Assembly: GCF_004010195.1 (NCBI RefSeq)
Contig: NC_057756.1
Span: 2,854,776-2,918,775 of the forward strand
From: Chiloscyllium plagiosum
Lineage: Eukaryota
Direction: 5' to 3'
Length of the DNA: 64,000 nt
Within the stretch, counting starts at the first letter, position 1, and the number at the start of each line of letters is the position of its first letter. The notes under the pieces were generated by a model. It saw nothing but the letters and a program-made list of their open reading frames with translations. It was not told the DNA's origin and ran no database searches. Position numbers and translations under genes: made by a program. Below, piece after piece: positions 11,721 through 57,211 of this stretch.

Positions 11721-11750
11721 AGAAATGCAATGAAGACTTCGCTGAGAAAG
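11721..11750 (+). CDS. Micro-exon 2 (30 nt, phase 1-1); EKCNEDFAEK
   Basis: gcttgtttcaacag acceptor, AAG|gtacga donor, open frame; aligns to the 36-nt module lacking its first two codons (C at module position 5, F at 9). Confidence 0.75.
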
Positions 11751-12448
11751 GTACGAAATTACTTGGCGTGTCTTTACTGTCATGAGTACACAATTGTTCT
11801 TTGAGTCGTTGTTAAGTCATGTGCCATTATATTTCAATTCAAGTTCAGCTCTCCAAACCTCACTTGGTAATCTTAACTTTGGTTGACACAACAGTGGTGA
11901 CACAATGGGCCTTGTTCATCTGTGCATCTCTGATTCATTTGTATGCACTGTTCCGTACACTTCCCTGCATCTGCAGTCCGAATGCGGTTTTTGTTTGGAA
12001 GAGAAAGTTATATCTACAGAAACTCCAGTCGCATTTAGTCCTTCATTTCAATAAGTCTTCAGGGAGCCATATCTGTCCAAGGAAAGTGAAACCAATCCTC
12101 CTGTGGAACAAAGAAAAACGAACCCAATAGATTTTGCGGCGAGTTGTATCCATCTTCTCCCGCTGTATTCACTCACAAATTAATAGATAAGAGTCTCGAA
12201 TATGTTACTAAATTGTAGAATATGAAGTAACGAATATTCAGCAAGTTTTCTTCTTCTGATACATCAACTCATCCAAAGCTGAAACAATAAGTTTTGGTGT
12301 GATTTTGTCATTTGTTACTACAATCGTACAGCTTCGAAATGTATTTCGGTAATACCACAATGTATGCACTATCGAATGGCACTAAGAAAAACTGCACTGT
12401 TTATTACCACAAAGTATGACAATTCTATGCATTATTTTACCCTTTTAG

Positions 12449-12475
12449 AGGTGGAATTGGCTAGAAAACAAAAAC
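12449..12475 (+). CDS. Micro-exon 3 (27 nt, phase 1-1); EVELARKQK
   Basis: ttttacccttttag acceptor, C|gtaagt donor, open frame; 698-nt intron after exon 2. Confidence 0.75.
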
Positions 12476-13799
12476 GTAAGTGTTGCATCATAATTAACTC
12501 AAAGGCGTGCATGCGTAATTGTTGACTGTCAAGAATATTCTTTTTCAGTCCTCAGTATGTCATGTGATGCATTGGAAAATGAATGGGAATTTTTGTTTCA
12601 TCGAGTAAAACTGTAATTGTTATTCATCAGCATAGAACATTGAGGAGAGGTTTGCTGCTATGTTCAAAATTCGAAATTCTTTGTAAATGAAATAAAATAA
12701 GCTGTAATTTATTTCGGCACTGCTGGTGGCCAGAATGGAAAGATTATAGGTTATTGCTGCAGATAAGTTGGAATGCAATAGAGTTGGAGAAATTGCCAAA
12801 CGGGTTATGATTCAATGAACATTGCCAGAACACTAGGAAACCAATGTATACATACTAAAAAAGTGGAATTGTTACTAAAACAAAGATATAAAATCAGCTA
12901 AGTTGTGGAGAAAGAAATCAGAGTACTTTACTTCAGTCTTTCATGGTGAGCTCGTGTTCTGACGATGCCATTGGGTTAGGTCTCACGTTTTGTTTTGTTT
13001 CTGTAAAAGAATGTCAGAGACAGTAATGCGAAGACATCTGACAAGGCAAATAACTTAAGCAAATAATGAGGACTTTCTTTCTTGTAAGCAACAGAAGCGG
13101 GCTAAATGTGCGGGATCAAGCATCTACATAAGCGGGATTTCTGCATTTAGCTTCTGAAGTTGTGTGTATTTGAAAGCTGGATTTCGAATCTTTCATTCCT
13201 CTCTGTTACTTCGGAAAGCTGTTGTTCTCTTCCTGCTACTAAACATGTTTGTGAACGAATTGTTTTTACTGATTAGGAACACAGAACACACGTTTTGTTG
13301 AAGTGGGAAAGGAAGGCGCATTGTAAATTAAACAGTTGCAAAATAATGACTAACCTATTTAAGGGTTGTTTGAGAGGTAAGTGCTAAATTTCTTCGAAGA
13401 ATTTGCATGCGATGGCAAGGTTTACTCATGAATGACAGGAGGAGCTGGTGAGAAAATGCTGTTTTACCAGATGCTGTAGAATTAAATTTTTGATGGTGAC
13501 AATTGAGGAGTTACAGAATTCACAAGGAGTATTGCCAAGAAAACCTGGTACTCCTTGAAACGAGTAGCAAAACGTTATATAAATTGACATTAGAGAGTCA
13601 GGTGAAATATGATGAAGTGCTGTTCGAAGTAACAGAGATACTTTCTTGTTTCCAGAAATACAATCTGTCCTTTGTAATATAATAGCTGGATCATAGTTGG
13701 CAAACTACTGAAAAATCAGGCACTGAGTAATTGAAGGACGAATATGCTGCGAAATTTCCTGACTGCGTGCTATCAACTAAACAAAGTAACGAAAGGAAA

Positions 13800-15450
13800 T
13801 CGAAGGAGAAATCACGAAATGAGTACAAGGAATTTGAAGGTCAACTATCAGAACCCACTTAAATGGGTGAGAAAAGAAAATAAGATTGGAGAAGGACAAA
13901 CGCATGTTTGTTTCTCGGATAATTTGGCTGAATTACAACTGACAGACGAAAAAGCAAAACAGTCCAAGCGGAAGGCAGCAGAGAAAAATAATCTGAGTTT
14001 ATACTAACATGTGGCGATGTTGAAAATGAAGTCGTGCTAAGGAGGTGGCCACCATTGCACATATTGAGAGCAATGAAAATTTGCAGCAGTGCATGATGTT
14101 ATACAACTGTTGCATTACAGAATGGAAATGTTTCGGGCAGTGCATAATTTATAAGAACAATGTAATTCTCCAGTAACACAAGCTCAACTGAAATGCAAAA
14201 AAGAGGCTTAGACTATATAATGATGCCATCAGATTTCGTGGGACATTTCATATGTGTTAGGTAATTGAAAATTTTGGGAAATGATGCCCATTTTTAGATT
14301 AGAGAAGCATTTTGCAAGAGCTCCAATTCATTAATTACAGTCCCGATTGAAAGAAAAATGTGGGAATCAGTGTTTGCTGACATAAGTGGATGTGGTCTAC
14401 TAAATTTGCAAACGGCATTCCATTACGCAGTTTCACGTCTTAATGTACTGCAAAAGAGTTACTTTTTTTGTATTGATATGGACTAACGACAGTAATACAA
14501 TCGGACCGAGTGTCTAATTAGGTTTTACATCACAATTATTTAAAGAATTTATGTACCACTTAGAAATAAAATAACACAAATCAATTGTGCACCATTTAAA
14601 TTCGCAAGAAGCCTCAGAGCAGAAGGATCAATCTTTCCATACAATTTAAAGGTTTTAGTTTAGGCATCCAGAGGACTGGGATAAGGATTTCCATTTCCAT
14701 ATTTTATAACTACTGAATGAGTCAGCTGAATTGAGTCATTTTAAATAGGATTTTAGATGACATGAAAGAACCAGCGAAATTAATTAAGGAACAATTGAAA
14801 ATTGAGTGTTCAGCGAGAAAGTATTTGTACTGGATATCAATTTTTATGGAAAGCGAGTGAGTTGGCCGAAGAGTACTTCACATTTGCTCAGAATGTCATG
14901 AAAAAGAAAATACGCAAGAGAACAAATCTCCGTAATTTTGCTGCAAAGACAAAGGGTACTGTCAGTATTAGTGTTATAATGGGAAGGTGCAGTGAACGGA
15001 AAATGAATGATAGAATTATTTTATAATTGCGCCAGATAGGAAGAAATCCCTGAGTGTATCACTAGAATACGCCTAAAGTGCACTTCGGCAGTTAAAGAAT
15101 TCCAAATGAGAATGCGTGCGTTACAAAGTGAAGACCAAATGATTCTGAATGGAATATCCCTCAAATTAAACTGGGTAATAGAGAAATTCCCCCAAGAAAC
15201 GATAGATTATTGAGATAACTTTCAAAAAGAACTTGAAATGACCTGAAACAGTTATAACAATCGCATCAGAAGGTACGTGGAATTAACTGGAAGTACATAT
15301 CTAATTATGCAAGATATGGATATCGGAAATTATATTCCAAATAAGTAACAGACATTTGGACTCTATCGTCTAAAGTTGGCATACGTTCAAACATATATTG
15401 CCTGCAAGTTCTTAGACAAAAGATTTGTCTCAATTGCAGCAAATAGAGGC
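13800..15450 (+). mobile_element. Second, more decayed Gmr1-like gypsy pol fragment (integrase to RT N-terminus)
   Basis: Remnant peptides GNQCLLT*VDV, YGLTTVIQSD, FTSQLFKEFM, HPEDWDK, ASELAEEYFTFAQNVMKK, collinear with the 7305-11272 copy. Confidence 0.7.
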
Positions 15451-15489
15451 CACCAGTAGTCATGGCACTGAAACTGAAGGTGTATAATT

Positions 15490-16915
15490 CACCTGTAGAA
15501 GATCGGCTACACCTAGAGCTCTAAGGGAGATAGCTGAAGACAGAGCAGATATTTTGATCGTGATCGTATAGCAATTGCTAGAATCAAGTAGGGTCTCGGA
15601 ATAATTGAAAACTGGGAACGTGGCATCCTTGTTTACAAAGTGAGTTATGCAAAGATGGAAAATTGCAGAATAGTTACCCTAACATCAGTCGTGGAATCCA
15701 TTGTGAATGATGAGATTTCTGAATGCTTGGTTGTTCATGGATAAATAGGGGAATGTCAGCATGGCTTAATTCAGGAGTTCGCAAACCTGTTAAAATTATT
15801 TGAGGAGGTGACAGGCAGGTTAGGCCAAGGAGAGCCAAAAGATATTATCTACCTAGACGTCAAGAGGCCCTTTTACAATTGTCCAAGCAGCAAGTTACAG
15901 AGATTGATATGTGCCCATGGTTTTCGAAGCATGGTGATAGCATGGATAGAAACTTGGCTGTCTGGAAGAAGGCAGGGAGAGAGGACCAAAATCGCACTTT
16001 TCAGACTGGCAGTCGGTGCCAATTGGTACTCCACTAGATTCAACTTTTCACTTTATACATTAATGATTTCGATGAAGGAACTGATTAGTTTTCCAGATGA
16101 TACAAAGCGAGGTAGACGAACAGATGGAATTGAGGAGGCGGGAGTCTGGAGATGAATTTGGACAGGTTATGACAGTGGATAAACTAATGACAGACTGAGG
16201 GCAATGTGGTTTCGAGTCATGTTATGCACATTGATAGGAAGAATAGAGTCGTGCACAATGTTCGAATTGAGGAGAAAAATCAGAAATTCGATATGTAGAG
16301 AGACTTGGGACTTCCAATTGATAATTCTCTCAAGGTAAACTTGCAGGTTAAGTCAGCAGTCGGGAAGGCAAATGCAATGATGACATATATTTTGAGAGGA
16401 TTTTAATCTCAAAGCAGTGATGTACTTCTGATGTTTTACAAAGCTCTAGTCAAACCACCTTTTGAATACTTAACAGAGTTTTGGGCAATTTCTCAGAGGG
16501 GGGATGTAATGACAGTGGAGAATATTTAGATGACGTTGGCAGGAATTTTCCCAGTAATGAAAATCTTAACATTTGAGGGGCATTTGAGGATTCGAGTCTA
16601 CACTCCATTGTGTTTATAAGGATGAGGGAGTTCAAATTTAAATACACAGAATCAACACCAAGAGGCAAATGGCCTGGCGAGAATAAATCTTGTGAAGATG
16701 TTTCCATTGCCACGAGAGTGTAGGATCGACGGGAATATCCTCAGAGTAAAGAGAAGACGATTTAGAACCGAGATATGGAGAACCTTATTCAGCCAGAGAG
16801 AGGTAACACTTTGGAACTAATTGCCGCAGAAGGCTGTGGGGGCGAGATCATTGAGTGTATTTAAATTGAGTGAAATCGATTTGTAAATATCCAGATGATC
16901 AAGGGTTTCTGAGAA
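15490..16915 (+). mobile_element. Decayed CR1 LINE ORF2 (RT); its 3' end resumes at about 18590-18700 after a nested insertion
   Basis: DIIYLD, WIETWLSGRRQ, FPDDTK remnants; 3' UTR remnant after 18590. Confidence 0.8.
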
Positions 16916-18587
16916 CAATAGAAATAGACAATAGACAATAGGTGCAGGAGTAGGCCATTCAGACCTTCGAGCCTGCACCGCCATTCAATATAATCATGGC
17001 TGATCATTCCTAATCAGTATCCTGTTCCTGCCTTATCTCCATAACCCTTGATTCCACTATCTTTGAGAGCTCCATCCAACTCCTTCTTAAATGAATCCAG
17101 AGAGTGGGCCTCCACTGCCCTCTAGGGCAAAGCATTCCACACAGCCACCACTCTCTGGGTGAAGAAGTTTCTCCTGAGCTCTGTCCTAAATGGTCTACCC
17201 CGTATTTTTAAGCTGTGTCCTCTGGTTCGGCACTCACCCATCAGTGGAAATATGTTTCCTACTGCCAGAGTGCCCAATCCTTTCATAATCTTATACGTCT
17301 CAATCAGATCCCCTCTCAATCTTCAAAACTCAAGGGTATACAAGCCCAGTCGCTTCAGTCTTTCAGTGTAAGGTAATCCTGCCATTCCAGGAATTGACCT
17401 CAATAGAATGTCTTTTCTCAAATTTGGAGACCAGAACTGCACACAGTACTCCAAGTGTGGTCTCACCAGGGCCCTGTACAGCTGCAGAAGAACCTCTTTG
17501 CTTCTATACTCAATCCCTCTTGTTATGAAGGCCAGCATGCTATTAGCCTTCCTCACTACCTGCTGTACCTGCATGCTTGCCTTCATTGACTGGTGTACAA
17601 GAACACCCAAATCTCTNNNNNNNNNNNNNNNNNNNNNNNNNNNNNNNNNNNNNNNNNNNNNNNNNNNNNNNNNNNNNNNNNNNNNNNNNNNNNNNNNNNN
17701 NNNNNNNNNNNNNNNNNNNNNNNNNNNNNNNNNNNNNNNNNNNNNNNNNNNNNNNNNNNNNNNNNNNNNNNNNNNNNNNNNNNNNNNNNNNNNNNNNNNN
17801 NNNNNNNNNNNNNNNNNNNNNNNNNNNNNNNNNNNNNNNNNNNNNNNNNNNNNNNNNNNNNNNNNNNNNNNNNNNNNNNNNNNNNNNNNNNNNNNNNNNN
17901 NNNNNNNNNNNNNNNNNNNNNNNNNNNNNNNNNNNNNNNNNNNNNNNNNNNNNNNNNNNNNNNNNNNNNNNNNNNNNNNNNNNNNNNNNNNNNNNNNNNN
18001 NNNNNNNNNNNNNNNNNNNNNNNNNNNNNNNNNNNNNNNNNNNNNNNNNNNNNNNNNNNNNNNNNNNNNNNNNNNNNNNNNNNNNNNNNNNNNNNNNNNN
18101 NNNNNNNNNNNNNNNNNNNNNNNNNNNNNNNNNNNNNNNNNNNNNNNNNNNNNNNNNNNNNNNNNNNNNNNNNNNNNNNNNNNNNNNNNNNNNNNNNNNN
18201 NNNNNNNNNNNNNNNNNNNNNNNNNNNNNNNNNNNNNNNNNNNNNNNNNNGCCCCGGAGGCTTATCAACCTTCAGACCTAACAGCTTCTCCAACACCAAA
18301 TCCTGGCAAATATAAATTCCCTTAAGTTCAGGTCCTTCAGCTACTGTTACCTCAGGGAGATTGCTTGTGTCTTCCCAAGTGAACACAGATCTGAAGTACC
18401 CATTTAATTCCTCCATTTCTTTGTTCCTAGTAATATATTCCCCTGTTTCTGTCTTCAAGGGCCCAATTTTTGTCCTAACCATTTTTTTTGCCTTGCACAT
18501 ACCTAAAAAAGCTTTTACTATCCTCCTTAATATTCTTGGCCAGTTTACCTTCGTGCGTTATTTTTCCTCTGCGTATTTCATTCTTAG
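16915..18587 (-). mobile_element. Young CR1 LINE nested in the older CR1; spans an assembly gap
   Basis: Well-preserved [19 protein letters not shown] and LNGYFRSVFT peptides; tail seen as (AGACAAT)n near 16915-16940. Confidence 0.9.
17617..18250. other. Assembly gap (N run)
   Basis: Run of n characters. Confidence 1.
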
Positions 18588-21500
18588 TAACAAGCAGGAG
18601 AATTAGGGCTAAGAAACTTAGCAGAAATGAATAAATGGTGGAGCAGACTCAATGTGCTGAATGGCCCCTAATTTCTGTTTCCACGTCTTATTGTCTCTTT
18701 GAAATTGATGCATCCAGCGATTATGCGAAGACTATCACAAAGGCAATGCTATTACAACATTGGATTCACCTGGTCTTCGACGTTTGTAAGACTGCAATGA
18801 GAATTTGAAAAAAAGCAACTTGCATTTAACATTTCGGCATACTCGGGATCCTAACAGTTAACACTATCTGAAAGAGCAAAGACAATGTCAGCTTTCATGA
18901 TTCCGAATGGACTGCAACACATTAAATGCCTGCCATTTGTACGATAAATGCAGCAGCCACATTTCAAAGTTAAATCATCAATATATTTTCGGAATCATCC
19001 AAATGGGCAGTGTACAATGTTGGTCTGTTGATTAAGTCACACATGCAAGTAACATTAGGAGCTTCCATCGGAAATTTTGAATCAACATCAGGAGGGAATG
19101 TATAATGCGTTGTTCTTGGAGAGTTCCACATCAATCGACGAAGAGTAAGTACAATTCCTAGGTCTGAGTGTCTTTTTTTTAATCAGAGTTTCGCACCAAA
19201 ATTTAGCAGTGTACTTGCTCGACGAACTAGCTTTTTCAAGAAGTGTTATGCACATGTCACTACATCGCGCTATTCAACATGTGTATCGATGTGGCTGATG
19301 TGGGTGTCAAGGTGCACGCTCTCATGAAGATGATAATAATATGGAAAGACTTATTTGGCATCTTAGATACAGAAAATTGAACAATCAACAAGATAAGTTA
19401 CACACAATTGAAAAGGAGATCTGAATCTTGCTGTTCACATTGCACATTTTGAACATGAATATTGCCAGTAAGATGACTGAGATATTTACATACCCTGATC
19501 TTAACATATTGGAGACGAAAAAGAATGAAAAATGCAGACAGTTTAGAATGAACGTTTTTTTTATAACATTCAATTTCAAAATTATATTCTGGGAAGGATT
19601 ATAGAATGTAATTGCTGAAACGTTGTCGTCACTGTTATGAAGGAAGTCGAATGCGTTCATTGGCGCGACAATATGATTAAAATGGATTGCAGGAGTGAAT
19701 ATTTGCATGTTCAGATCTGATGGCATCCAGTTGCACAGTAGTGGTAATAGTGTGAGGCTGAAGTTGTGTTTCTGTATAAAGTGAATTTACTTTTGTATAT
19801 TGTTAGTTAATTTTCTGAAAGGGAAAGTGTGACGAATCTACGACTTTATGTTTCTTGGAATGAAGAAAGCTTGAGACAGGTGCATCAAATGGTCTGCTCA
19901 AAGGAAATGAATGAACAGCTGGTGAGGCATTTTTTTAAAAAAGAGGTACAACAGAAGCAGCCTAAATTGATGTGTTCATAACTCCAAAAAAACAGGGCTT
20001 TTATTTTTTTGGTGTACACATTTGCTGGGATTCTGGAATTGGATGTTGAAGATTGTCGCCCTCTCTCCGTTACAATTAAAGTTAGGGTCACATCATGCTG
20101 CTCGAAATGCATGTGAGACAAACTATATTGAATATGCCTTTGCCAACTCTGTGCTTGGCGAAGCTAAACTAATAGGGATGGCGATAGAGTGCAATAGATG
20201 CCGTTATCCTTTCAAAACAATGCAACTACCTCACTCGCTCTGCAGAACCAAAAAAGCGTTCGGATCAACAGTACCCGCATTGTCACTGGTAAGTTTACTT
20301 GTTTAACCAAGTTCTCAAGTGAAATGAAAGGCTTAAACATCCTTTTTAGTCGGACTTGGACAATGCTTGTCCATATTTTAACAGATCCCAATCATGTAAT
20401 TTACTTTGTTCGGATTGCTGTCAAATTCTGTTCTTATCGATACTCCTTGCTTTCACTTCGACATTCGCTGTGCCTTTTAATTTAACTGTTCTGTAATATT
20501 TTATCAAAAGATTGCACATTTTCAGAATTTACTTCTCATTTCGTTTGCATTCATTTAGCCACTGTCGTCATCACAGTTTTCTTTTGACCTTGTTTGTCTT
20601 TATTCTTTTGTATGCTTGTTTATTCATTAATAAGTTGTTTTCATCTTTCTGTGTATCTACCTTCCTTTATTACTGTCTGACGTTCTTGCCATAATTAATC
20701 AGTAACTCTTTGAGTTCTTCTTTCATATCTACCTTAATTCTCATACTGTATCTTCCTGAATTGCTCCGTGTTACATGCAATTCGTGAAACAGTCTTTGCA
20801 ATACACTCATTTCATGATTGTTTATTTAATTTTGTTTTCTTTGGTATATCTGCATCTCTTTCGTTTTATAATTTTGCTCTTTCAGGTTCTTTTTGAATTC
20901 ACTTTTAACCCTTTGTTCGTTCACACCCATACACCATCTCTGTTTGCATATTTCATCGAGGGTCTTTAATCATGTTAAATTCAAAATTCCAGGTCTACGT
21001 GATTTTAATTCAAAATGTTTATTGGGATTCACCAAAGCCACATTGTAATTCTTGTTGAAAAATTAGTTGCTTCGAGACATGTTGGATCATAGTCACTAAA
21101 AAGTTGATTGTGATCCAAGAACAAACTGGACAGATATTCTGATAAAAGAAAATGAATATGATCCTCAATGAAAACTAATCAGAGAAGTCAATTGAAATTC
21201 TAATTCATTGAATTATTCAAGTGTACTACAAATGATAATTTGAAGACTCAAATTATATATATGTATGTATGTATATATATTGTTGCGCACTGAACGTCTG
21301 TGTTAACTTCATTCTACTACCTCAGTCTAAGCTTTATAGTAGACAATATCAATTTGTACACAGAGAGGAAACGATTGCTTTGCAGCTTGCCTGTAATACT
21401 GTAACACAACTTTGGAAAAATCAATCGTTTAATTTTATTTATTGGTCAGTTATTTCCATCCCCTCGTAATCACAGCAAATATATGTTTACAAATCGAACT

Positions 21501-21716
21501 CGTATTAAAGCACTCCACAATATATGTTTATCTGTCCCACTGAACAGCATACTTTATTAGTGTGATTACCTAATGGAATGAAACAAGAACGGTTAACAAA
21601 ATAATGTTACATCAACTAAGACACGAATGGATACCCACTTTACGAGCAAAAGAAAATTGAATAAGAAAGAAAAAATCTAATAAGATCTGCAATTTTATGT
21701 TTCATTTCTTATTCAG

Positions 21717-21752
21717 AGCTTGCTGAAGCAGAGAAAAGGGTCGATTCAGTTG
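21717..21752 (+). CDS. Micro-exon 4 (36 nt, phase 1-1); QLAEAEKRVDSV
   Basis: tttcatttcttattcag acceptor, TTG|gtaaat donor, open frame, hydrophobic residues at positions 2, 5, 9 and 12. Confidence 0.8.
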
Positions 21753-22755
21753 GTAAATCGCTCACTGTCTAATCCAAACTGTTTTCTGTTGAAATTACGT
21801 TTGTACTCGGAGTTGTACTTTCTAATGATGAACACTGGCATTTTTGCAGTCACATATGTCGCTTATTAAGGAGTTCATGACTTGTCATTAAGCATCTTTT
21901 GCAAGTTATTTGCGATAAAATCATATTCTTTGCCGTTCTAATTTTGCATGTTCGGTGCTAAGATAGATATTTCCCTGCGAAATCATCAGGTTTCTTTTTT
22001 CAAAATATGCAAGACCTTCGTAAATTCTTCGATACAACATTCCGAACGAATGACTTAAATATTGCATTGACCACGACAGTGCATGTTTTCAATAAGGTTA
22101 GAAGTGGTTTGATTTACACGCCAATTTATGACATTCCCATTCTTAGAACATATCCCTGATATTGAGACATCTCAAACTACTTATTGAACTGTCCATCTGT
22201 TTTGTATTCTAAATTTGCACATAACTGTTAATCAACAGATAGAAAAGGAGAATTGTCACGAATTCGCTGAATTTCACAAGTTTTTTGATTAAACAAATGA
22301 TACATCAACTGCGAGCGTTTATTAATCATTGATTGACGTCCATGAAATTACAGCAACATGAATGGTACTTTGTCAGAAATTTACGAATTTAAAACTCTTA
22401 TTGAAACACTCCAAATAGCTGGTCACCTTGCACAATGCATAAGTTCTGAGAAATTTGGAATGGAATTTCATTTTTCCATTTTGCTTCTTCATTCTTCAGA
22501 ACGGGTTTCTGTCATTGTGCTCAAGCTGACTTTGAAAAATGCACTTACATCCAGAAATTGATGTATTTCTGCACTACTTCCGTTCGATGAGTTCAAGACT
22601 TCCTTCGCCATATGGTTCTAAACCTGCTGTATTGCTGTAATTCATTAAATTTGGGGTACAAAGTAACTTTATTTATGTAAATAATAACAGCTGTATATTT
22701 AGATTACGCAGTAAAATTTACTATCATTAATGCAATCTATTTATACACTTTACAG

Positions 22756-22782
22756 AAAGGCAGCTAAATGTTTTGACTGGAG
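22756..22782 (+). CDS. Micro-exon 5 (27 nt, phase 1-1); ERQLNVLTG
   Basis: atttatacactttacag acceptor, GAG|gtaaaa donor; 1003-nt intron after exon 4; continues the heptad register. Confidence 0.75.
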
Positions 22783-25990: not shown

Positions 25991-26721
25991 CAGAATACAG
26001 AGGTTTCGCAACGTCTGACTCAGTCCTTCAAACTTATAAATATTACTCTTAACAGCTGCCTTTATTTCTCTTTTTCATCAATGTTTTATGCTCAGCCTCA
26101 TCTCGGAATGTCAGCAATGGAAAATATAATGCACAGCGGTGGAAGGGAAAATAATTATCTTGTAACCTACATGTGTAAGCAGAATGTCAATGATATCAAG
26201 TTGTACAAAACACTGACATGGATACACTTTTCGTTTAACACGTTGAAAGTTGTATGCTTCTCACTACAATACTTTACGTTTCTGGAAAAACAAAACATGA
26301 TGATTGTGAAGAGAAATAAAGGCAGCTGTTAAGAGTAATATTTATAAGTTTGAAGGACTGAGTCAGACGTTGCGAAACCTCTGTATTCTGTAAGACCATA
26401 AGACTGTAATACATAGAAGTGGAAGTAAGACCATTCAGCCTATCGAGTCCACTCCACCATTTAATGATTGCTGATGGGCATTTCAACTCTACGTACCCGT
26501 ACTCTCCCCATATTCCTTAATGCCTTGCGAGATCAAGAATTTGTCAATCACTGCCTTGAGGTCATTTAATATGACTTCCACTACACTCAGTGGCAATGGA
26601 TTCCGGGGCCGGCGCTCTGGTTGAAATTTCTCCTCATTTCCATTCTAAATTTATCCTGACTAATTTCAAGTCTGTGCCCACGGGTCCTCATTTGCCCTCC
26701 TAATGGAAACAACTTCTCAGC
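25660..26721. repeat. Inverted repeat: 413-bp arms (25660-26072 and 26309-26721), 236-bp spacer
   Basis: Arms are reverse complements with equal coordinate sums (no net indel); the ORF track shows an identical peptide of about 60 aa on opposite strands. Confidence 0.95.
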
Positions 26722-29640
26722 GTCCACGAACCCTAAAGCCCTTCATTATCTTGAAAGTTTCCACCTCAACCTTCTAAACTCTAATGAGTACAGTCCCAGG
26801 ATCCTGAACCGTTCGTCGTATGTTCGGCCTACTATTCCAGGGATCATTCGTGTGAATCTCAGCTGAACATGGTCCAGCATCAAGATGTCCTTCCTGATGT
26901 ATGGGGCCTATGATTAGCCACAGCATTCTAAATGGGGCCTAGCTAGAGCATTATAGATTATCAGCAACACATCACTGCTTTAATATTCGCTTTTGTTTCT
27001 TATGTATTGAAAGGAACTTTAACTATTATTTATAATATTACTGGGAAGCCTATGTTCATATTTGATCCTCTCCTTCCATATTTCTGTCTTTGTTTTCCTC
27101 AGTATGTTTTCATAGTCTTCCCAATCCTCTGAATTCCCAGTGCTCATGTCCAGTTTATACGCTCTCTCTTTTTCTTTGATGCATTTTCTGACTTACTTTG
27201 TCAGCAGTGGCTGTTTAATGCTCCTCCCCGGCCCGCCACTGATGATCTTTCTTTTATTTGGGATGAAAGTCTGTACTGTACCCTCAATTACACCCATTGT
27301 CGCCCTTCTGTCTTCTCCGCTAGACACTGCCTCCATTCGATTTTTGTCACTTCCACTCTCACGACAATGTAATTAGCTTTATTTAATTATAACACCATGC
27401 CATCCGATTTTGCATTCTCTCTTTCAACTGCAGACTGAACTTTACCATATTATGATTGCTGCCTCCTTAGTGTTCCCTTACTTTAATATCTTTTATAAAG
27501 TCTTGCTCATTACGTGCTACGAAGTCTAGAATAGCCTCCTCCCTTGTAGGCTCCATTACAAGCTGTTTAAATTGCCATCCTGTAAACATTCCATGAATTC
27601 CATGGATCCACCGACAATATTATTCACCTAGTTCACCTGCATATTGAAGTCCCCCATAATCACCGTGATCTTGCCTTTCTGTCATGTCCTATATATTTCA
27701 CAATACGTCTTGCGCCACTGGTCCTGACGACTGCTAGGAGCTCTGTACATAAATCCCATTCTGATTTTTGTTTGCATTTGTTGTACCTCAACTCCAGCCA
27801 CAGACTCCACAAACTCTGATCACATTTCATTCAGTGCCATGGATTTAATTTCATTCTTAACAAGGCAACCCCGCCCCCTCTGCCTACCTCACTTTTTTTC
27901 GATAACTTGATAATTCTTGAATGCTTACATGCCAGTCCTGAACTCCATAGACGTATGTCTCTGTGATGCCTACAACATCATAATCATTCATGATTATTTT
28001 TGCTGTTAATTTGTTTACTTTGTTACGAATCCTACGAGCATTCATGTCAATCGCCATAATGATAATTTTCTTATCCTCATGATTTCCAACATCTCCAGTG
28101 TTCTGCCCGAAGTTATCCTTCCTCTTTGCTTCATTCCTAGTCTGCCTTGAACTTAAACCCTGCACACTTGCTAACGTGGCTCTTATCTTTCTACTTGACT
28201 CCATACTCCTGCTCACTTTCCCTTTCCCTTCCACCTGACTTATAAGTTTATACTCCTAGTGACCACTATTTTTATCCTTTTCGCTGGAAGTCCGGTTCCA
28301 GATCGGGTCAGGTTGAGACTGCCACTATGGTTTGGATCCCACCGGTTCCAAAACTAATGCCAATGTCGAATGAAATGGAATCCCTCTTTCCCACACCAAT
28401 CTCTTCGAAGCGTGTTTTATTCCCGAATGTTCTTATTATTATATCAATTAACGCGTGGCTCGGGCTGTAATCCAGAGATTATGACCCTCGATGACTTGCT
28501 CTTCAATTTCCTTCCCAGTGCTTGACAATCCCCCAAAAGGTAATCGAATCCATCCTTGCTTATGTTGTTAGTGCCAATGTGGAACACAACAATTGGATCT
28601 GCTGCCACCCGATCCAATATCCGTTCAAGCCTGTCGGAGATGTCCTGCACCCTGAGGTCATGCACGCAACCATTCGGAAATCCCGATCTGGCTCACAAAG
28701 GGTGCTATATGTTACCCTGATTATAGAATCTCTGATAAGAACTACTTGTCCTTTTGCTCCCCCCATCTTAGATAGCCTTCTTCACCAAGGTGCATCAATT
28801 ACACCCATTGTTGCTCTACTGTCTCCTCTGCTAGACACTGCTTCGATTCAATTTTTGTCACTTCCACCCACATGCCCCGTAATTTGATTTATTCAGTTAT
28901 AACACCATTGCATTCGATTTTGCTTTCTCTCTTTCAACTGCAGACTGAACTTTACCATAGCATAATTCCTGTTTCCTAAGTGTTCCCATTCTCATCCTGT
29001 CCACAGTCCTTTCTTTCATCCGTACAGGGAGCAAGAATCCCATAGCTATTGGACAAGGTCAAGGGCAGTGGGCTTCTCCACTCCTGAACACAGACTCCCC
29101 CTACCTGCCTCACTAAAAGTCATACTCTTTTGTCCATGATCACTGACGGAATTTTAGTGACTTAATATGAAGCATATGAATGCCTCCTGAAGCAAAGCGT
29201 CCAGGTAACTCTCCTCATCTCGGATTTGCCATAGTGTTTGAAGCTCAGATTCCAGATCCTCAATTTTGATGCGGAGATCTTCCAGCATGCAACACTTGCT
29301 GCTCATGTGGTCACTGCTGTTCACAATGAGATCAGCCATTTCCCACATCATACTGCCCACCACATCACCTGCCCATCCATCTCTAATAATTTAATTAATT
29401 TATGCAAATTTATAAGTTAAATAAGTCCTAGTGGTCTTATTCAACTAGTCAGCTCACAGTAAACAATACACACAATACACAAGATGTATCAATTGAAAAG
29501 ACTTACCTTAGTAACACATGAAAGTCCATTTTTGTTCGAGGAGGAGGATGGGTGTTCCTTGAAAAACGGCGAATGTGCGCTCCCTTCCCGGCAGCCCTCG
29601 CTTCTCTCTGGCCTCTGTCCTCGCTGATCTCTAAAAATGG
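26390..29640 (-). mobile_element. Internally deleted CR1 LINE retaining 5' region, ORF1 (leucine-zipper plus SGNH esterase) and ORF2 endonuclease
   Basis: KCCMLEDLRIKIEDLESELQTL; VVLIRDSIIR, IVVFHIGTNNI, VIISGLQP; MNARRIRNK..DVVGITET; most of the RT is missing. Confidence 0.85.
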
Positions 29641-30244
29641 AACCATACTCACTCGTATATATCTCCCGGCAAATACAGCATGTTAAACTTGGTCAGAGCA
29701 ATTCAAACTGTGCATTGTGAATTGCATTTATTAGACTTTGTCAATCGTATTTCTTCGGGTTGGTATATTGTGGGCTGGCAATATCAGGACATATATTACA
29801 ATGTTGGCATCATTGCTGTTGAATGATGAGAAGCATCAGTGGTAACAGGCTGAAATCAATTTTCTAGTCGGAATGGGACATTGCACCATGCTTTTTTCTT
29901 TCACTCACTGTTTAAACCACATTGACATATGAGTAAGTTGCTTCTTGGATGCATGCAGTGGCACGTAAATATAAGGAACACTTCTGCAGATAAGCATTCT
30001 CATGCCACTCTTGCAATGGGAATTTTCTTCGAGGAAAAAGATTTGTCAGGTATAAATGAACTCAATGTGATAAAAGTGTTATTACTTTTTAACACCAAAT
30101 TATCAATAAGAACACAGCAGACACTTAATTTGATTAAATAATGAAATAATTTCCAAGGAGGAAGTGTGGAATAATTACCATGTTGATTTGAAATGAACTT
30201 TAATAATATCGTTCTGATCCAACAACTATTAATAATTTTAACAG

Positions 30245-30277
30245 GACTCGAAGAAATAATTGTGAAGCAAAAAGAAG
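30245..30277 (+). CDS. Candidate micro-exon 6 (33 nt, phase 1-1); GLEEIIVKQKE
   Basis: taataattttaacag acceptor, AAG|gtacca donor, open frame; resembles the 36-nt module minus its last codon (L2, I5; KQKE versus NQKS/NMKE). Confidence 0.6.
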
Positions 30278-30879
30278 GTACCACGTGGAAATCAATCAAA
30301 ACGTTTTGAAATACATGATTAACATTTCGATGCTTGCCTTCATTGGAGTAAATTAAAACATCTCTCTAAAAATAAATATTTTAACTTGCAAATAAAAAAA
30401 CACACCTTTGTGAAGATCTATCTACTCCGTTGAACAAAACATTCTATGCACTTGTCATTCACGACATACGACTAATTGATCTCGATGATGCAAAGTTAAA
30501 ACATGCCCATTTCTACTGGAGAATGTAAAAGGAAACAAAGACAGTGGACATTGAAAGCATCATACAAAGAAAAAAAATCTTTAAAAGAGTCAGACCAGTC
30601 AACCGGTGTACAATTTCATCTACTTTAAGTATTGCAATTGTGAATCATTTCGCTCTAGGTATTTTAATTATAATTACCAATATTATTTTGGATGTTCAGA
30701 AACTCAGGTTGGTGAGATCATTGCTGGACCTAAAACGTATGTGGACCTATCCCAAATGCCAGACCATGAATGTAATTTGAAAGAAAAAAAAACAACTTAC
30801 TCCCGCTCATTTTCTACAGAACATAAAGACAGAATATAAAAAAGACGTCTTTTTTAATAACGTTGACGGAGGATGTTAA

Positions 30880-31300
30880 TGTCATGGAACCAGTCAGACC
30901 ACCTCAAAACATTTGAAGAAGGTAGCCAACACGCTAAAATTTCTAATTGTTTTGAGCAGGTATGCAGTGGATATTCCAGGAGGGATGCAGCTGTTTTTAC
31001 CATTTTGTTTTTAACCATGACTGAAATTATTTATAAATAAACGAATGAAACGCAAACGAAAGAGAATAGCAACCTATCTGAAAACTTAATGATGCTGTTA
31101 AAACACGTGCAATAATCATCACAAACAGCCTTTGGAAAAAAAATAAAATCAAACACAGGGTCTTACAGGGGAGGGAGAGAGAGATAGATACAGAGAGGTG
31201 GGGGGTGAGATGGCAGAGAAATTCAGCATGGAACAGCTTCTTTCATGTGTTTACTCCTTTGACCAGCGGCACGGCACCAGTTTTGAGTTTCAGTCTGAAT
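30880..31300. mobile_element. LTR fragment related to the 10645-11272 LTR
   Basis: tgtcatggaaccagtcagaccacctcaaaacattt aligns with tgttatggattagaccagaccactcaaacattc, with scattered similarity downstream. Confidence 0.65.
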
Positions 31301-31779
31301 TGCATTGAACCCTCGACATGATGGACGCAGAACATGAGGCTCCTCCAGACCACAATGGTACTGCGAACAACATCCCACCAAGAACCACCTCAGAGACATT
31401 GTAACCTTGAAATTCCCATGGGCAATCAAACTTATTCGCACTTTGACTGATGCAATAAACCGAACGACTCAAAGGAAACTCAGGCAGACAAGGTAGGACG
31501 TTGAAAAGCAAAACCATCAGACATTGTTGCAAGAGAAGCCAGGTCACGAGCACTTTAAGGCTACACGGGTGGCCATGAGCGATGTGTGCCATCCCAATTT
31601 ACTTAGAAACTTGAAGTAAATTTTCTTTCCTGTTGGTCTATTTGCAATTTCTCTTCTCAATGGCAATATTGTGAAAAATAAGTAATTTTGAATCGATCAT
31701 TTCATGACACTTTCGTTTCTGGAATATAAAGAACAACTGGACCAAAGTTATTTGCCTCTTATGTGTTTGGAATTATTAG

Positions 31780-34700
31780 AATATAAAACATTGAACAATG
31801 CAGCACAGTACAGGCTCTTTGACACTGGCTGTTGTGCCGGCTTTATACTGAACGAGAAAAACAAACTATCTTACATAATCTACATTTTACTATCATCCAT
31901 GTGCCCACACAAGAGTCGCTTCAATATCCCCAACGCATCTGACTCTACGAGCACTGCTGGCAATGCATTCCAAGCACTCACCGCTGTCTGTGCAAAGAAC
32001 CTACCTTTGGCATCTCCTCTAAACATTCTAAATCACCTCAAAATTATACCACCTCATGATAGACATTTGCGCTCTGAAAGTAGTGTCTGCCTATCCACTC
32101 TATCAAAGCTTCTCATCGACTTGTATCCCTCTATTAAATCATTTCCAATTCTTCTTCACTTCAGAGAGAAAAATCCTAGATCCCTCAAAATTTGTTCTAA
32201 AGACAAGTCCTCAAATTCAGGTAGAATTCTGGTAAATCCCCTCCAAATCTTCTTTAAAGCTTTCACATTCTTCCTCGAGTGAGACGACCAGAACTGAACA
32301 CAATAATCCATGTCTGGTTTAACCAAGGCTTTATACCACTGCAGCATAGCCTCGTGTCTATTAAACTGAAACGCTCTGCTAATGAAAGCCAACTCACCAT
32401 ACGCCTGTTTAACAGCCCAACCAACGTGGTTGGCAACTTTGAGGGATCTGTAGACAAGGACCTCAAGATCCCTTTATTCCTCCACTTTCAAGAAAGCTGC
32501 CTTTAACCCCGAAATTTGCATTCAATTTCACCATCCCAAAATTAATCTGTTCGCACACGGCCAGTTTGAACACAATTTTCTAAGCCCACCTCTGCCTCCT
32601 CTCAATGTGTCATTGCAAGCTACAGCAGCCCTAAGCACTATCCAAAACAACCCATCAAACCTTAGTGTCGTTGTCAAATTTAGTAACCTACCCTTCCACT
32701 TCTTATTCCAATTTATTTATAACAAAAAATTACAAAGTGCAGAGTTCCCCGAATAGATTTCTGCAGAAAACCACTGGTCACCCAGCTCCAGGCTGAATGC
32801 TTTCCATCTAATACCACTGTCTGTCTTCAAAGCGCCAGCCAATTATATATCCAAACAGACACATATCCTGCATTCCATGCCTCCATAATTACTGAATGAG
32901 CCTTCGGCAGGGAAACTCCATATGCACCATATCAACTGCTGCACCTTCATGAATCTCTTTGGTCGCATTCTCAGAAAGGCTTTTGAGGCATGTCCTGCCC
33001 CTCACAAAGGCATGATGACTTTGTATAATAAAACTATGGCTTCCTAAGTAATTATAAATCTTGTTTCTCAGAATCTTCTCCAATGCTCTCCCCATATAGA
33101 CATAAGACTGATCATTCTGTCGTTCTTTGTGTTCTCCCTATTCCATTTATTGAATGATGCAATAATATTTGCCACCCAGAAAATCAAATGCTGACACTGT
33201 AGTGGACAGTGACAACGTAATTCTTCTTGCCAAAGGCGCAGCAATCGGTTCCCTCACTTCCCGTATTAAACTTGGATGTATTCTTTTGGCCCAGGGAACT
33301 TGTCTGTCGTGAAGTTTTTCGGCATTTCCTGAGCATCCTCCTTCTCAACATCAACTTGTTCGAGTGCTTTAGATCGTTTCACGCCGACTCAGAAAGGATA
33401 CGATTCGTGTCACTAGTGAATATTGAAAGAGAATATTTATTAGGGATCTTTCTTACCGAATTCGACTCCTTGCCCAGCTTTCCTCCAGTATTTCCAATCG
33501 GTCTTACCATCACTCTGGCCACCCTCTTCTTTCGTACATAACTTTTGAACGTCTTGGGCTACTCCTTAATCCTAAGTGCCAATCATAGTTCATGCCCCCT
33601 TCTAGCTCTCCTAAACTGATTCTTTTGCTCAATCGTTGCTAACATGGAATCCTAAAGAGCCCAGTCGGCTCCTTGTTTCCTTTAACTTAAGTATACTCCC
33701 TTCTTCCACTTGGCCAGAAGTTCCAAGTCTCGTGTCATCTGTGGTTCATTCGCCTTACAATCCGTTCCTTGCCTCATGGGGGCATAACTATCCAGGGGTC
33801 GCTGCATGTTCTCCCTAAAAATCCTCCATATTTCTGATGTGCATTCCCCGGAGAATTCCTGCTCCCAATTCATATTCGAAAATTCCTGTCAAATAGCAAT
33901 GTAATTTCGCCTCCCCGAATTAAATATTTATCCATACCATGTGCTCCCATCTCTCACCATGACTGTAGTGAATGTTAGAGAGTTGTTACCAGTATTACAG
34001 AAGTGCTCTGTCACTTAGAGATGTCACAGCTGACCTGGTTCTTTTTCAAGCACGAAATCCAGATTGGCCTCCACTCAAACGGCATATCAAAGTACTCAGA
34101 CAGAAATCCTTCCTAAATACGCTTGACAAAATCTGTTCCATCCAAACTATTTCCAGGAGGAAGATTCCAATCAATAGTAGGCAAGTTGAAGTCACCCATG
34201 AAAACAACACTGCTACTTCTTCAGCTTTCGAAGGTCTGCCGGCAATCGGCGCCTCTGTTTCTCTGTTGCTACTGGGTGTTCCATAGAAAACACCAATTAA
34301 AGCAGCCGCTCTTTTCTTGGTTCTGAATTCCATCCATACTAACTCAGAAGACAAAGTTTGCTCGAGGAAATCCATTTTCTGCAGCTGTTCTTCTCTCCCA
34401 GATTAGCTAACCACGCCCCCATTTATGTTAACTCCCTTCCACAATCTTTAGAAATATCCAACAACCATCCCTTCCACTATGATGTCCATGTTTCTACATT
34501 GACCACAACATCGGAGCTGCAAGCATTGATCCATGCTCGAAGTTCATCACCGACATTCCTGACATTTTTTACATTAAAACGGATACACTTCAAACGAACA
34601 CCGACTGCAACCTTGCCCTATCAACTGTGTAACCTTCCTCACACTAACCTCTGATCCTTAGCTCTGCTTCACATACCCCTGCCCAAACTAGTTTGTACCC

Positions 34701-34780
34701 TCCAGAAGAGCTTCAGCAAACCTTCTGCCCAGGATATTAGTACACCTCCAGTCCAAGTGAAAAAGTCCTTTATTTCAAAA
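31780..34780 (-). mobile_element. Decayed CR1 LINE ORF2 (endonuclease to RT) with 3' tail
   Basis: ELVWMEFRTKK..IGVFYG, QSHHAFVRGRTCL, YKALVKPDMDYCVQFWS. Confidence 0.85.
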
Positions 34781-37247
34781 AGTTAGAGACATAAATTGCA
34801 GATTCAGGAACCCAAGTTAGACATGCAGCAGGCCGGATGAAAAGAGCAAGCCATGCAGTATCAGGAGTCGAAAGTCAACGTTTTATGTGTAACTCTTCTC
34901 CAACAAATGTTTTATTACAAGGTGAACAACATTTTAATACATATTTTACAATTTGGCAACTTACACGAAAGCAATTAAACCTGATTGATCAAACAAATCA
35001 TTCGCAATTAAAATGACTGAGTGCCAACTAATTAAAATTACAAAGCAGTCTGATATTTAGAAGGCCGCACTAATTCACTATTGAATCTCTGAACTGAACA
35101 TTAGTAAGATAATCGACTTTTCTGGAACATGGTTAGCGTTTTGAAGAAGCACTGCATTATGAATTTACAGTGAAAAAGAATCTCCTTACTTTGTTTCCAA
35201 ATTGCCATTATATCGTCGCTCACTATATGAGCCATGATCGTTTCTTTCGTTGAAAATGTAAACTTAAAATTGTACATAACCTTAACAAAGCTCATTATTT
35301 CTGAACCAGCATTTTATGATCCTTGTGTGGGTGAATTTTATATTTAAGTACAGTTAATTGGAAGGAAGTTGAATCGAAATTATTCTTTTATAATAACAAG
35401 AGTCCTATTACAGGTCATCAGAATCAACCACAATTTTAACAATTTGTTCAAAAACTTCTTCTTTCTGATACATGAACAATATTACAAGTTAAGTTATAAC
35501 ATGATGACCCCGCTGATAATTGGAAGGAAAATGGATGTATCATCATATGTTTTGGGGATAAAACAAAGAATTTCAGAAAATAATTTATATTTTGCCCCTG
35601 CAATTTTATTTAATTTGTATCCTATTTAATGATGTTTGTCAAATTAGTGAAATTGACAATTAGAACGTCATTTTATTTCTTCTTGCACATTGTCGTGTTT
35701 TTACTTAACAAACTAGATATATCAGATAATATTTTCCCTATACTTACGAAGAGTTAGCACATCTGAGGTATTATTCATCAAATGAAGGAAGAAAATAAAG
35801 CTCAGCAGATCAAAAATATATTTTACCACTCCATCTTTCACCTATAGTTTGGTCATCCAACCTTCCTAACTTAAAAGATTTTGCAATGACCAAAGTCATT
35901 TGGAGTCGAAGGTTGGATTTGTCTACATTACGTTATCTCATTAACTTTGTAAAACAATGGGTATTTACAAACAAATTATTACAATTCTCTATTGGGGAAA
36001 ACTAAAAAGAGTCAATGATTTTTAACTGAAATTTCCTTTTCTATCGTCATTTTGAAATATTTTGTATTAATAGATTTGCCTTTCCCCTACTCCAGCAAGA
36101 CATCCCTGTGAAAATGTGCGAATAGATGAGTTCTCCTCCAGAATATTTCAAGTTTCCATTATATGCATGGCAAATGGCTGGGGTTGTGGGTTGGTGAAGA
36201 ATCACGGTGAGTGCACAGTATGGCATTTCTTTTTCAAGTTATGCACCAGTTCTGCATATAAAGCATCATATTCAGTTGAGAAATACTGCTTCGACTTTAA
36301 TTTGTATCAGCTTTCATTGCTCTTAATTGGGGGGTGGGGGCGGGGGATGTCAACTTTTGCTGTATATTGAAATGCAGGAGAGCTTCTTCACGCTATGAAA
36401 CATTTCAGGGTAACGCCGTTAAACACTACCTGCAGGAATCGTTTTGTTTCTTACATTCATTGGTAAAGGGTGCTTCGTATTATGCAATTCATCAGCCAGA
36501 GTCTCCTCTAACATATGCATCAATGTAATAATATCGAATTGTTTGTGAACTTAATTACATGTGAATTTAAGTTCAAGTCATTGAGAAAACTAAATGTTGA
36601 CGGTGAATTCCTCCCCGCACAAAGAGGAAGACAACGTGAAACGACTATTTTCATATGAAACATGCAACTCTATATGATTCAATAATAAAGACATCCGTTA
36701 CTTTCGCTGTTACATTTTTGTCCATTCCATGCTGGTACATTTTTGTTAGCCATTTTGTCGAATTAGCAAATGTATGCAAAAAATAATTGGCAAGATATGC
36801 TGCACAAAGGAACTCGAGAAAGTACCGTTCAAACTGATGTGTCCCGGATGAGTTACGGATGTGAAAGTTCCGTGAATAAGAACATATTAAATGGAAACAA
36901 ATTGCACCAATGCTGGAAATCTGAGACGTACTTAGCAAATACTGAACAAACGCAGCAGATTTGGTCACATTTTGCAGAGAGAAGCAAATTTCAACTTTAG
37001 AGTCTGGTACAATAATTACAATATACTGGTCTCAGCATATATTTCTCTTACCATACATGATGTCCTAACTGCTGATGTTATCAAGCATTCGTGTGTTCAT
37101 TGAAAATATTTCCTCTGTTCTCATAATCATGTCCAATGATTGGCATGCAGACTACTTACTAAAAAAATAGTTTTCGAAACTTGTTGCTTTAAATACTGCG
37201 TACAATGGTTTTACATCAATGAAGTCAAGTTTTGACTTGTATTTCAG

Positions 37248-37283
37248 ATCAAGCTAACTTATACAAAAACATGAAAGAAGTGG
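37248..37283 (+). CDS. Micro-exon 7 (36 nt, phase 1-1); DQANLYKNMKEV
   Basis: ttttgacttgtatttcag acceptor, TGG|gtaagc donor, open frame. Confidence 0.8.
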
Positions 37284-38383
37284 GTAAGCATAAAAAGAAT
37301 GTTGTATCCACATTGTGTTGAAGGGTCATCTTTATTTAAGGACAGAGCGATGGACGTTTTGACGATGTCAGTAAGAACTAGTAGAATAATTCAGAAATTT
37401 TGGCGAATATTCAATAAAATACTTCATAATATCGCTGAAAAACCTCGTTTATTTGGAGGAATAGAAACACTGATAGAAAAGCAGTATGTATCCAGCTCGA
37501 TATTCCCCAAACCTATGCTCCCACGATTCCTGCCTGCAATGTTAATCAATGGAATTAATATAGATCTGAGCATAATCAATCCATAATCCGAGTCGATGAA
37601 TGTTGGTGATGAATCTTCTTGGGGTATCAATCACAGACATTGAAATAATTGATCACACCTTCTCACAGAGATATGCCTATTTCTTTGTATCTAATGATTT
37701 CACAATGAAACTTTCTTTTGCACCGAGCTGAAACTTGTGTCTGGACAGTTAGCACACAATTTGCAAATGAGCTTGCAAATGAATTTGATAAAGATATACA
37801 ATTGAAAATATAGTTGTACAGGAAATGACAATTGGGCTCGGATTATTTGGATACTCTTGTCTCGACCACAATTGCCAATAAAATGAATCTCTCCAAAAAT
37901 TTTTTTTTTCTTTGCCTGCATGGTACAGAATTGAGTATTTTGAACCAGAATATCAAGCGTTAAATTCCTGGTGGCATACACAGTCGTTTAGTGACGTTTT
38001 CCCGTTACATCTTAAAGATGATATTAATCAGCAAAATTAACAGATGGCATATCTGTGTTTCCAGAATTGTCGATTGAAAGCAGCTTTGATGAATTCTACC
38101 AGTTTTTACCAAGGGACATGGCCTTATTCCTTTCTTTTCTGACCGACCACAAGAGTTTTGCAAAACTGACTGTACTTCTTCTAAGGTGATAGTTAAAGCA
38201 GTAGCTGTCTAATCTCTGAATTTCCAGATTAAAAATCAATGAAGATGTAAGATATGACAATGCGTATCAGCTCATTTTCGTTGTTAAAACAGAAATGTGT
38301 AATTTTAATAGAGTTTTTTTTTTAAATCTTCTTGCATATGATGTACTTCAAGTGAGTTACCAAGCATATGTTTTTCTTCACAG

Positions 38384-38410
38384 AGACGTTGTTGTCAAAT
38401 AAAACAAAAG
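38384..38410 (+). CDS. Micro-exon 8 (27 nt, phase 1-1); ETLLSNKTK
   Basis: tgtttttcttcacag acceptor, AAG|gtaaag donor; 1100-nt intron after exon 7; contains an N-K-T sequon. Confidence 0.8.
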
Positions 38411-39525: not shown

Positions 39526-39695
39526 GATGTAGGTTTGCTCGTTCAGCTGTAAGGATCATTTTCAGATGTTTCTTCACCATACTGCATAACGTCTTCAATG
39601 AGGCTGCGGATGAAACGGTCCCTGAAGATGTTCCTTGTATGGAGACAAACGTCTGACAAAGTGCCTTCCAGCTCTGCGAGCAAACCTACATCCAG
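39526..39695. mobile_element. Palindromic Penelope-like short element (two opposed pseudo-LTR halves with decayed hammerhead cores)
   Basis: ggatgtaggtttgctcg ... cgagcaaacctacatcc inverted termini; internal cCTGAAGAtgttcc..ggagac-AAACGTC. Confidence 0.6.
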
Positions 39696-57210: not shown

Positions 57211-57211
57211 T

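Follow-up and report, generated by a model that had tools for sequence, protein, structure and literature searches.

Phase-1 micro-exons of 27 and 36 nucleotides in a shark genome probably encode the middle of a very large coiled-coil rod

We analysed a window of 64,000 nucleotides (nt) from the 3.56-Gb genome of the shark Chiloscyllium plagiosum (C47:2,854,776-2,918,775, where C47 is contig NC_057756.1). A preliminary description of positions 11721 to 38410 of this window had proposed that pairs of very small exons, of 36 and 27 nt, encode a repeated coiled-coil module. Nine micro-exon pieces are present in the window, six within that range and three outside it, and the 27-kb range is only a part of an exon chain which extends over at least 318 kb. 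The exons are very probably real and coding. They probably form the middle of one very large gene for a coiled-coil rod, which resembles the BG and butyrophilin genes in design and whose product is possibly secreted. With high confidence the copy can be placed in a family of micro-exon coiled-coil proteins of cartilaginous fishes (chondrichthyans). Continuous DNA of 354 kb was scanned, which comprised the window with 100 kb upstream and 190 kb downstream of it, together with 5.5 kb at C47 4.573-4.579 Mb. Coordinates outside 1-64000 are window coordinates extended.

Evidence for real exons is found in their length, strand and reading frame. Candidates were scored on their splice sites alone over the 354 kb (the splice-only set), and other lengths and the minus strand were used as background. 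On the plus strand the lengths of 27 and 36 nt gave 21 and 19 candidates (Poisson P 5e-9 and 1e-7, respectively), where the background has a mean of 4.2 per length and a maximum of 10; the minus strand yielded 4 and 2. The length of 18 nt is slightly enriched (12 candidates, P 0.0014 before correction for 58 lengths), and no enrichment was seen at 21 or 30 nt (21 nt: 5 against the background of 4.2). Stop codons in phase 1 are absent from all 21 candidates of 27 nt, as compared to 7 and 11 in the other two frames (chance 448/1191, P 5e-5), and occur in 3 of the 19 candidates of 36 nt, as compared to 15 and 7.

An exon model was trained iteratively on the plus-strand candidates with leave-one-out scores, and at a score of 9 or more it gave 37 matches on the plus strand and none on the minus strand. 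The list of 43 exons used below consists of the 54 rows scoring 5 or more, minus 12 rows (4 overlapping alternatives and 8 candidates of 21, 24 or 45 nt), plus the exon at 22756, which was added by hand; the trained model missed this exon, and the list is certainly incomplete. It contains 24 exons of 27 nt, 17 of 36 nt and 2 of 30 nt, which range from -71,047 to 247,339 (318 kb) and together encode 440 amino acids (aa). No stop codon is formed at any of the 42 junction codons. Lysine, leucine and glutamate account for 200 of the 440 residues and proline for 1. The pieces located in the window are listed here.

1..64000, plus strand: probable gene interior; the exon chain extends about 71 kb upstream of the window and at least 183 kb downstream (C47 about 2.784-3.102 Mb)
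2473..2499, plus strand: 27-nt phase-1 micro-exon of 9 codons (model score 10.8; outside the range first described)
3276..3311, plus strand: 36-nt phase-1 micro-exon, leucine at position 2 and cysteine at position 5 (score 17.1; AAG acceptor, strong donor)
11721..11750, plus strand: 30-nt phase-1 micro-exon of 10 codons, not 12 (score 14.7)
12449..12475, plus strand: 27-nt phase-1 micro-exon (score 13.8; follows the 30-nt exon after a 698-nt intron)
21717..21752, plus strand: 36-nt phase-1 micro-exon, a/d register at positions 2, 5, 9 and 12 (score 20.6)
22756..22782, plus strand: 27-nt phase-1 micro-exon (below the threshold of the trained model, kept by hand; follows the 36-nt exon after a 1003-nt intron)
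22923..22949, plus strand: uncertain candidate for an extra 27-nt exon with a GC donor (140 nt past 22756..22782; outside the 43)
37248..37283, plus strand: 36-nt phase-1 micro-exon (score 10.3)
38384..38410, plus strand: 27-nt phase-1 micro-exon (score 11.7; follows the 36-nt exon after a 1100-nt intron)
52133..52168, plus strand: 36-nt phase-1 micro-exon, leucine at positions 2, 9 and 12 and cysteine at position 5 (score 17.6)

All six pieces described earlier between 11721 and 38410 are present on the plus strand; each is flanked by AG and GT and is open in phase 1. The short introns of 698, 1003 and 1100 nt are as had been claimed. The proposed module of 36+27 nt, or 21 aa, is seen in two of the three cases; the first module is 30+27 nt (19 aa), and no alternative AG or GT at 11721-11750 gives 36 nt. 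Hydrophobic or cysteine residues had been described as falling mostly at six a/d positions per module; hydrophobic residues occupy all six of them, with alanine counted, in one of the modules and four in another. The uncertain exon at 22923..22949, if real, would make the second module 36+27+27. Elsewhere in the window the order at 2473 and 3276 is the opposite one, 27 nt followed by 36 nt across an intron of 776 nt, and no 27-nt partner of 52133..52168 was found within 24 kb. The stereotyped intron spacing did not extend to the whole chain, where only 3 of 13 introns from a 36-nt to a 27-nt exon are shorter than 1.2 kb (range 537-43,973 nt, median 5,023 nt, some of which undetected exons would make too long). 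Among the introns between two 27-nt exons, 7 of 10 are shorter than 1.4 kb.

The heptad register is strongest in the 36-nt exons. In the splice-only set their positions 2, 5, 9 and 12 are hydrophobic or cysteine in 46 of 76 cases, against 26.5 +/- 3.3 in shuffles, none of 10,000 of which reached this value. In the 27-nt exons positions 4 and 7, which correspond to 16 and 19 of the module, reach 19 of 42 against 11.7 +/- 2.6 (53 of 10,000 shuffles). Here the register is carried by position 4 (12/21); position 7 (7/21) is weak and lies under position 5 (10/21). Cysteine is found at position 5 in 6 of the 17 listed 36-nt exons and nowhere else in them. The power at a period of 3.5 residues is higher in the true exon order than in 998 of 1000 order shuffles. 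Since the true order keeps the heptad period, this argues for the pieces being read together. The best local period is 3.4-3.45, not 3.5, and a period of 3.6 is unsupported (205/1000 shuffles). The earlier proposal of a coiled-coil rod is supported, with this deviation in the local period.

A strict single module of 36+27 nt is not maintained throughout the gene. From one 36-nt exon to the next there are 16 intervals: five of 21 aa, six of 30 aa, two of 12 aa and one each of 22, 31 and 48 aa. The corresponding arrangements are 36+27 (five), 36+27+27 (six) and 36+36 (two), and 30-nt exons also occur. The region 21717-52168 is a clean three-heptad repeat and the whole gene is not. That 36+27 nt, or 21 aa, is a real unit is nevertheless borne out by this continuous run and by the recurrence of the 21-aa spacing in an elephant-shark relative (see below). 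The 36-nt exon L008:1653-1688 contains an internal donor 18 nt from its start and an internal acceptor that would retain 27 nt; both preserve the frame, and these are possible built-in length variants.

Growth of the rod by duplication of a two-exon unit, as had been suggested, is seen once, and the clearly duplicated unit is a doublet of 27+27 nt rather than one of 36+27 nt. Its copies at 158337/158931 and 188017/189411 are identical at 21 of 27 nt per exon and differ by 4 synonymous versus 3 changed codons, and the homology of their introns is gone. Comparison of the intron flanks of the 43 exons gave only repeat-type matches, none of them at matching places. In the doublets L011:4337-4957 and L024:4017-5437 the last A of the first exon and the initial TG of the second together form a methionine codon at the junction. 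Nine-residue units led by methionine are present twice in the elephant-shark rod, and their match to the doublets is within the shuffle range.

The family is represented by two RefSeq versions of one gene from the elephant shark Callorhinchus milii, XP_042192744.1 ('nuclear-pore anchor-like', 1,697 aa) and the older XP_007898089.1 ('myosin-2 heavy chain-like', 1,722 aa), and by shorter models from Narcine, Scyliorhinus, Leucoraja and Cetorhinus, labelled TRIM39/58/69-like or A33-like. All of these are automatic predictions with misleading names rather than characterized proteins. In XP_042192744.1 a short N-terminus of hydrophobic character is followed by about 1,400 aa of rod, and the model ends in a B30.2 (PRY-SPRY) domain of divergent sequence. 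A profile of the 17 36-nt exons matches this model 25 times as compared to 3.9 times in shuffles (maximum 9, n=50), an excess measured against shuffles only, and a heptad profile is likely to match unrelated coiled coils above shuffles, which tells against the link. The 24 spacings between the matches include 21 residues four times, 12 residues twice and 42 residues, and the common 12-residue motif has leucine at position 2, cysteine or leucine at position 5 and leucine at position 9. Best-match BLOSUM sums of the exon peptides against the same model are in slight excess (960 versus 897 +/- 23, maximum 955 of 30 shuffles). The two C. milii models are separated by 12 gaps, of which four are of 9 aa and four of 12 aa, and isoforms from Narcine and Scyliorhinus differ by internal blocks of 9 and 6 aa. 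These differences of 9 and 12 aa, together with the shared motif, suggest that the 27/36-nt exon design very probably exists in chimaeras as well.

Residues 390-900 of the rod of XP_042192744.1 matched only its own two models (7997 candidates), and the N-terminal 393 aa found nothing in the shark genome (0/14 candidates). Pfam detected no immunoglobulin (Ig), RING or B-box domain in six family models. The AlphaFold prediction for a Narcine relative contains long helices over residues 4-195 (mean predicted local-distance difference score, pLDDT, 49.6) and no confident model of the B30.2 part. In the ESM Atlas only generic coiled-coil clusters were matched (best 0.87), which may serve as a lead. 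We found no description of the family in literature listings that cover few subscription papers.

A search for SPRY led to an exon at C47:4,577,660 which has a phase-1 acceptor and a stop codon and is recognized by Pfam as SPRY (4.6e-18). Its relatives of solved structure are TRIM58, TRIM21, pyrin and BTN3A1 (1e-16 to 5e-19). Four protein queries returned the same five exons of one B30.2 subfamily, with the best 110-150 of 173-267 candidates scored: three on C47, at 0.995 (plus strand), 1.297 (minus strand) and 4.578 Mb (plus strand), and two on a second contig, C37, at 20.72 and 22.23 Mb. Those delimited in full are the following.

C47:4,577,499-4,578,019 (L026:500-1020), plus strand: intact terminal B30.2 exon, from the SPRY search and Pfam
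C37:20,720,064-20,720,582: subfamily B30.2 exon
C37:22,229,872-22,230,375: subfamily B30.2 exon; C37 also has most butyrophilin IgC and PRY matches

The two C37 exons have best matches of 66% with a Cetorhinus model and 61% with a Narcine model. Among 1.84 billion proteins, the closest single-domain relatives of the B30.2 at 4.578 Mb are chimaera, skate, ray and shark models. In a tree of 39 rows chosen from 150 matches, from which multi-domain matches were mostly left out, the subfamily forms one side of a branch supported by 100/100 against 31 other B30.2 rows. The B30.2 of XP_042192744.1 is nearly equally close to the exons at 4.578 and 0.995 Mb (7.4e-26 and 1.9e-25). No protein near-identical to the exon at 4.578 Mb was found in a collection of 5.8 billion: the 269 longer candidates gave no match, and the 14 of similar length gave a single paralog at 59%. 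The exon is therefore probably unannotated. At 1.8 kb upstream of it lies a 21-nt candidate whose donor is strong.

Several observations weigh against a single gene of this family in the scanned DNA. The joining of the exons is a prediction from DNA alone, and exon-free gaps of 44, 24 and 24 kb in the chain would permit more than one gene. The exon order is not colinear with XP_042192744.1 (78 of 500 shuffles reach the observed value) or with five other family models (68 to 490 of 500 shuffles across the six); the link to the elephant-shark model is therefore at the level of the family. No first exon was convincing, as a signal-peptide scan gave 7 candidates on the plus and 3 on the minus strand, none tied to the chain. 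Five of the seven family models, several of them apparently partial, lack a hydrophobic start. At the other end, no B30.2 exon lies in the 354 kb scanned; the nearest downstream one of the subfamily found on the plus strand is that at 4.578 Mb, 1.47 Mb past the last exon detected, and no exon of 27 or 36 nt was found in the 4 kb before it. The chain had not ended at 3.102 Mb. That this copy itself ends in B30.2 is proposed only tentatively. A hydrophobic N-terminal stretch occurs in the remaining two of the seven models (C. milii and Leucoraja; hydropathy over 11 residues 2.85 and 2.93). Together with the cysteine at a core position it gives a modest suggestion of a secreted, disulfide-linked rod, modest because the cytoplasmic tails of BG proteins also have cysteine. 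We regard secretion as a possibility somewhat short of an even one.

As a special case of the one-gene reading, the exons of C47 between about 2.78 Mb and 4.578 Mb, with the B30.2 exon as the last, would all belong to one transcription unit of some 1.8 Mb; at the exon density observed here it would contain about 240 exons and encode about 2,500 aa. The two ends are on the same strand, no other subfamily B30.2 exon was found between them and the chain is unended at 3.102 Mb; the C. milii B30.2 also matches the exons at 4.578 and 0.995 Mb about equally. However, such a unit would span 3.11-4.57 Mb, which lies beyond the DNA scanned, and the longest known family model has only 1,697-1,722 aa. We consider this extension unlikely. 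In its fullest form, which is more doubtful still, about 240 micro-exons would give a secreted, disulfide-linked rod that measures several hundred nanometres, with about 2,500 residues and a divergent B30.2 tip, and whose length and register are tuned by the skipping of exons of 9 and 12 residues. It would serve cartilaginous fishes in recognition, much like a collectin, or in structure, would date back at least to the split of sharks and chimaeras and would have escaped annotation.

The exons could also belong to a membrane protein of the BG/butyrophilin type, with Ig and transmembrane exons further upstream and the rod as its cytoplasmic tail. Small symmetric heptad exons would fit, and BG tails likewise contain cysteine and split first codons (PMC5938342). 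The subfamily B30.2 is related to those of butyrophilins and TRIM proteins. On the other side, the butyrophilin IgC profile PF22705 has none of its 55 matches on C47 and its best ones on C37 (96/96 candidates scored), no Ig domain was detected in the family models, and the exons measure 27 and 36 nt, not 21 and 24. No Ig-V or transmembrane exon was found in the 100 kb upstream of the window, where the sole hydrophobic stretch, 67 kb upstream, lacks exon ends and was rejected as AT-rich intron. A V-set search, with the best 150 of 1319 candidates scored, says little; one V-set Ig match at C47:10,206,275-10,206,583 is 7.3 Mb beyond the window, too far to be linked. A search for PRY gave nothing on C47, and no RING pattern was among the matches listed for the 264 kb scanned. 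Overall, a BG/butyrophilin-type membrane protein appears improbable.

A type II membrane protein with an extracellular stalk, either CD23/C-type lectin-like or tetherin/PLVAP-like, seems very improbable. The stalk of CD23 has cysteine-bearing heptads and units of 21 aa, which the present exons recall. None of the 35 Lectin_C matches and neither of the 2 PV-1 matches is on C47, where split exons would escape detection, and the exon motif points to the B30.2 family. Just as little credit is given to a decaying or unexpressed array, or to chance AG...GT pairs. The locus is known only as DNA, no near-identical protein to the B30.2 exon at 4.578 Mb exists in the collection searched and no gene ends were found; chance is excluded by the enrichment in length, strand and frame, and decay is opposed by the absence of phase-1 stops from the 27-nt candidates, by intact splice sites and by the balance of synonymous and changed codons in doublets whose introns no longer align.

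The one-gene reading can be compared with known systems. The elephant-shark family shares the 12-residue motif, the 21-aa spacing and the blocks of 9 and 12 aa, with three B30.2 exons of the subfamily on C47; it differs in the lack of a colinear match and in its B30.2 end, which was not found for this copy in the 354 kb scanned. The present copy has the chain of phase-1 exons of 27 and 36 nt by which the family is defined here. In chicken, BG genes build a long coiled coil from small exons of 21 nt (some of 18 or 24), 13-36 per gene in one haplotype and variable in number (PMC4046983, PMC5938342). True heptads span exon borders in BG and in a BG-derived zipper protein (PMC4046983, PMC5938342, PMC8813856), and BG tails carry cysteine (PMC5938342). 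The shark rod resembles BG in its long heptad region made from many small exons, with cysteine. It differs in its exons of 27 and 36 nt in place of the one-heptad exon of 21 nt; moreover, BG proteins combine an Ig-V domain with a transmembrane segment and lack B30.2, and none of these parts was found here.

Butyrophilins (BTN3A and others) have short heptad exons before the B30.2 exon, single ones of which are skipped (PMC6790196, PMC12841164). The likeness lies in heptad exons that precede B30.2, and the B30.2 exon on C47 has a phase-1 acceptor. Unlike butyrophilins, the shark chain has at least 43 exons and not a few; butyrophilins possess IgV, IgC and transmembrane parts, and the shark B30.2 is a separate long branch. 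Enterophilins are leucine-zipper proteins of the guinea-pig intestine in which a long rod of heptads is followed by B30.2, and they are not known to contain Ig or RING. They offer a parallel in this architecture only. A role of enterophilin with SNX1 and EGFR is given in PMC13749957. The rod is not filed as BG or butyrophilin because it fails on exon size, on exon number and, so far, on Ig domains. It is apparently a cartilaginous-fish-specific and poorly annotated variant of the BG/butyrophilin design of micro-exon heptads.

The remaining sequence of the window has a G+C content of about 38% and many decayed retroelement frames of a kind known from sharks. Runs of N are present at 17617-18250 and 63503-63514; the former sits within a retroelement remnant in the intron 12475-21717 and could hide sequence. 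A perfect inverted duplicate (25660-26072 versus 26309-26721, 413/413 nt, arms 236 nt apart) is either a very recent event or an assembly artefact. The 39-nt stretch 5412-5450 has the top splice scores (5.8 and 5.8) of the plus-strand candidates of up to 60 nt and contains a phase-1 stop, and it may be a product of chance or a poison exon of the micro-exon gene. A 21-nt phase-1 candidate with good splice sites at 28519-28539 was excluded; it encodes two prolines and lies in a repeat-like stretch.

Taken as one gene, the locus would cover at least 318 kb with at least 43 exons and specify a rod of at least 440 aa. All exons would have phase-1 boundaries on either side and lengths divisible by three, so that they could be duplicated, lost or skipped without a frameshift. 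The 36-nt exon would supply 12 residues with core positions 2, 5, 9 and 12, and the 27-nt exon 9 residues. Since 12 and 9 are complementary modulo seven, the pair would add 21 residues, or three heptads, and keep the heptad register. Combinations of 30, 24 and 19 residues would place local breaks in it. The product would be a long, segmented coiled-coil oligomer with cysteine at a core position; splicing, oligomer and disulfides are steps which we infer. Its most likely role may be that of an oligomerising stalk, perhaps held by disulfides, which either supports a binding head of the B30.2 type or has a structural function as a rod. Rod length would be set by exon number and skipping, and in family members with B30.2 the tip of the stalk would bear clustered binding heads.

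These findings point to a multi-gene family of chondrichthyans which annotation pipelines miss or misname because almost all of its coding sequence is divided into exons of 27-36 nt over hundreds of kb. After chicken BG, it would be a second solution for making an adjustable coiled coil from symmetric micro-exons, here of two complementary sizes, and a testable case of mutual constraint between exon size, skipping and heptad register. A secreted, B30.2-tipped product, if true, would be an unusual extracellular use of a mostly cytosolic domain.

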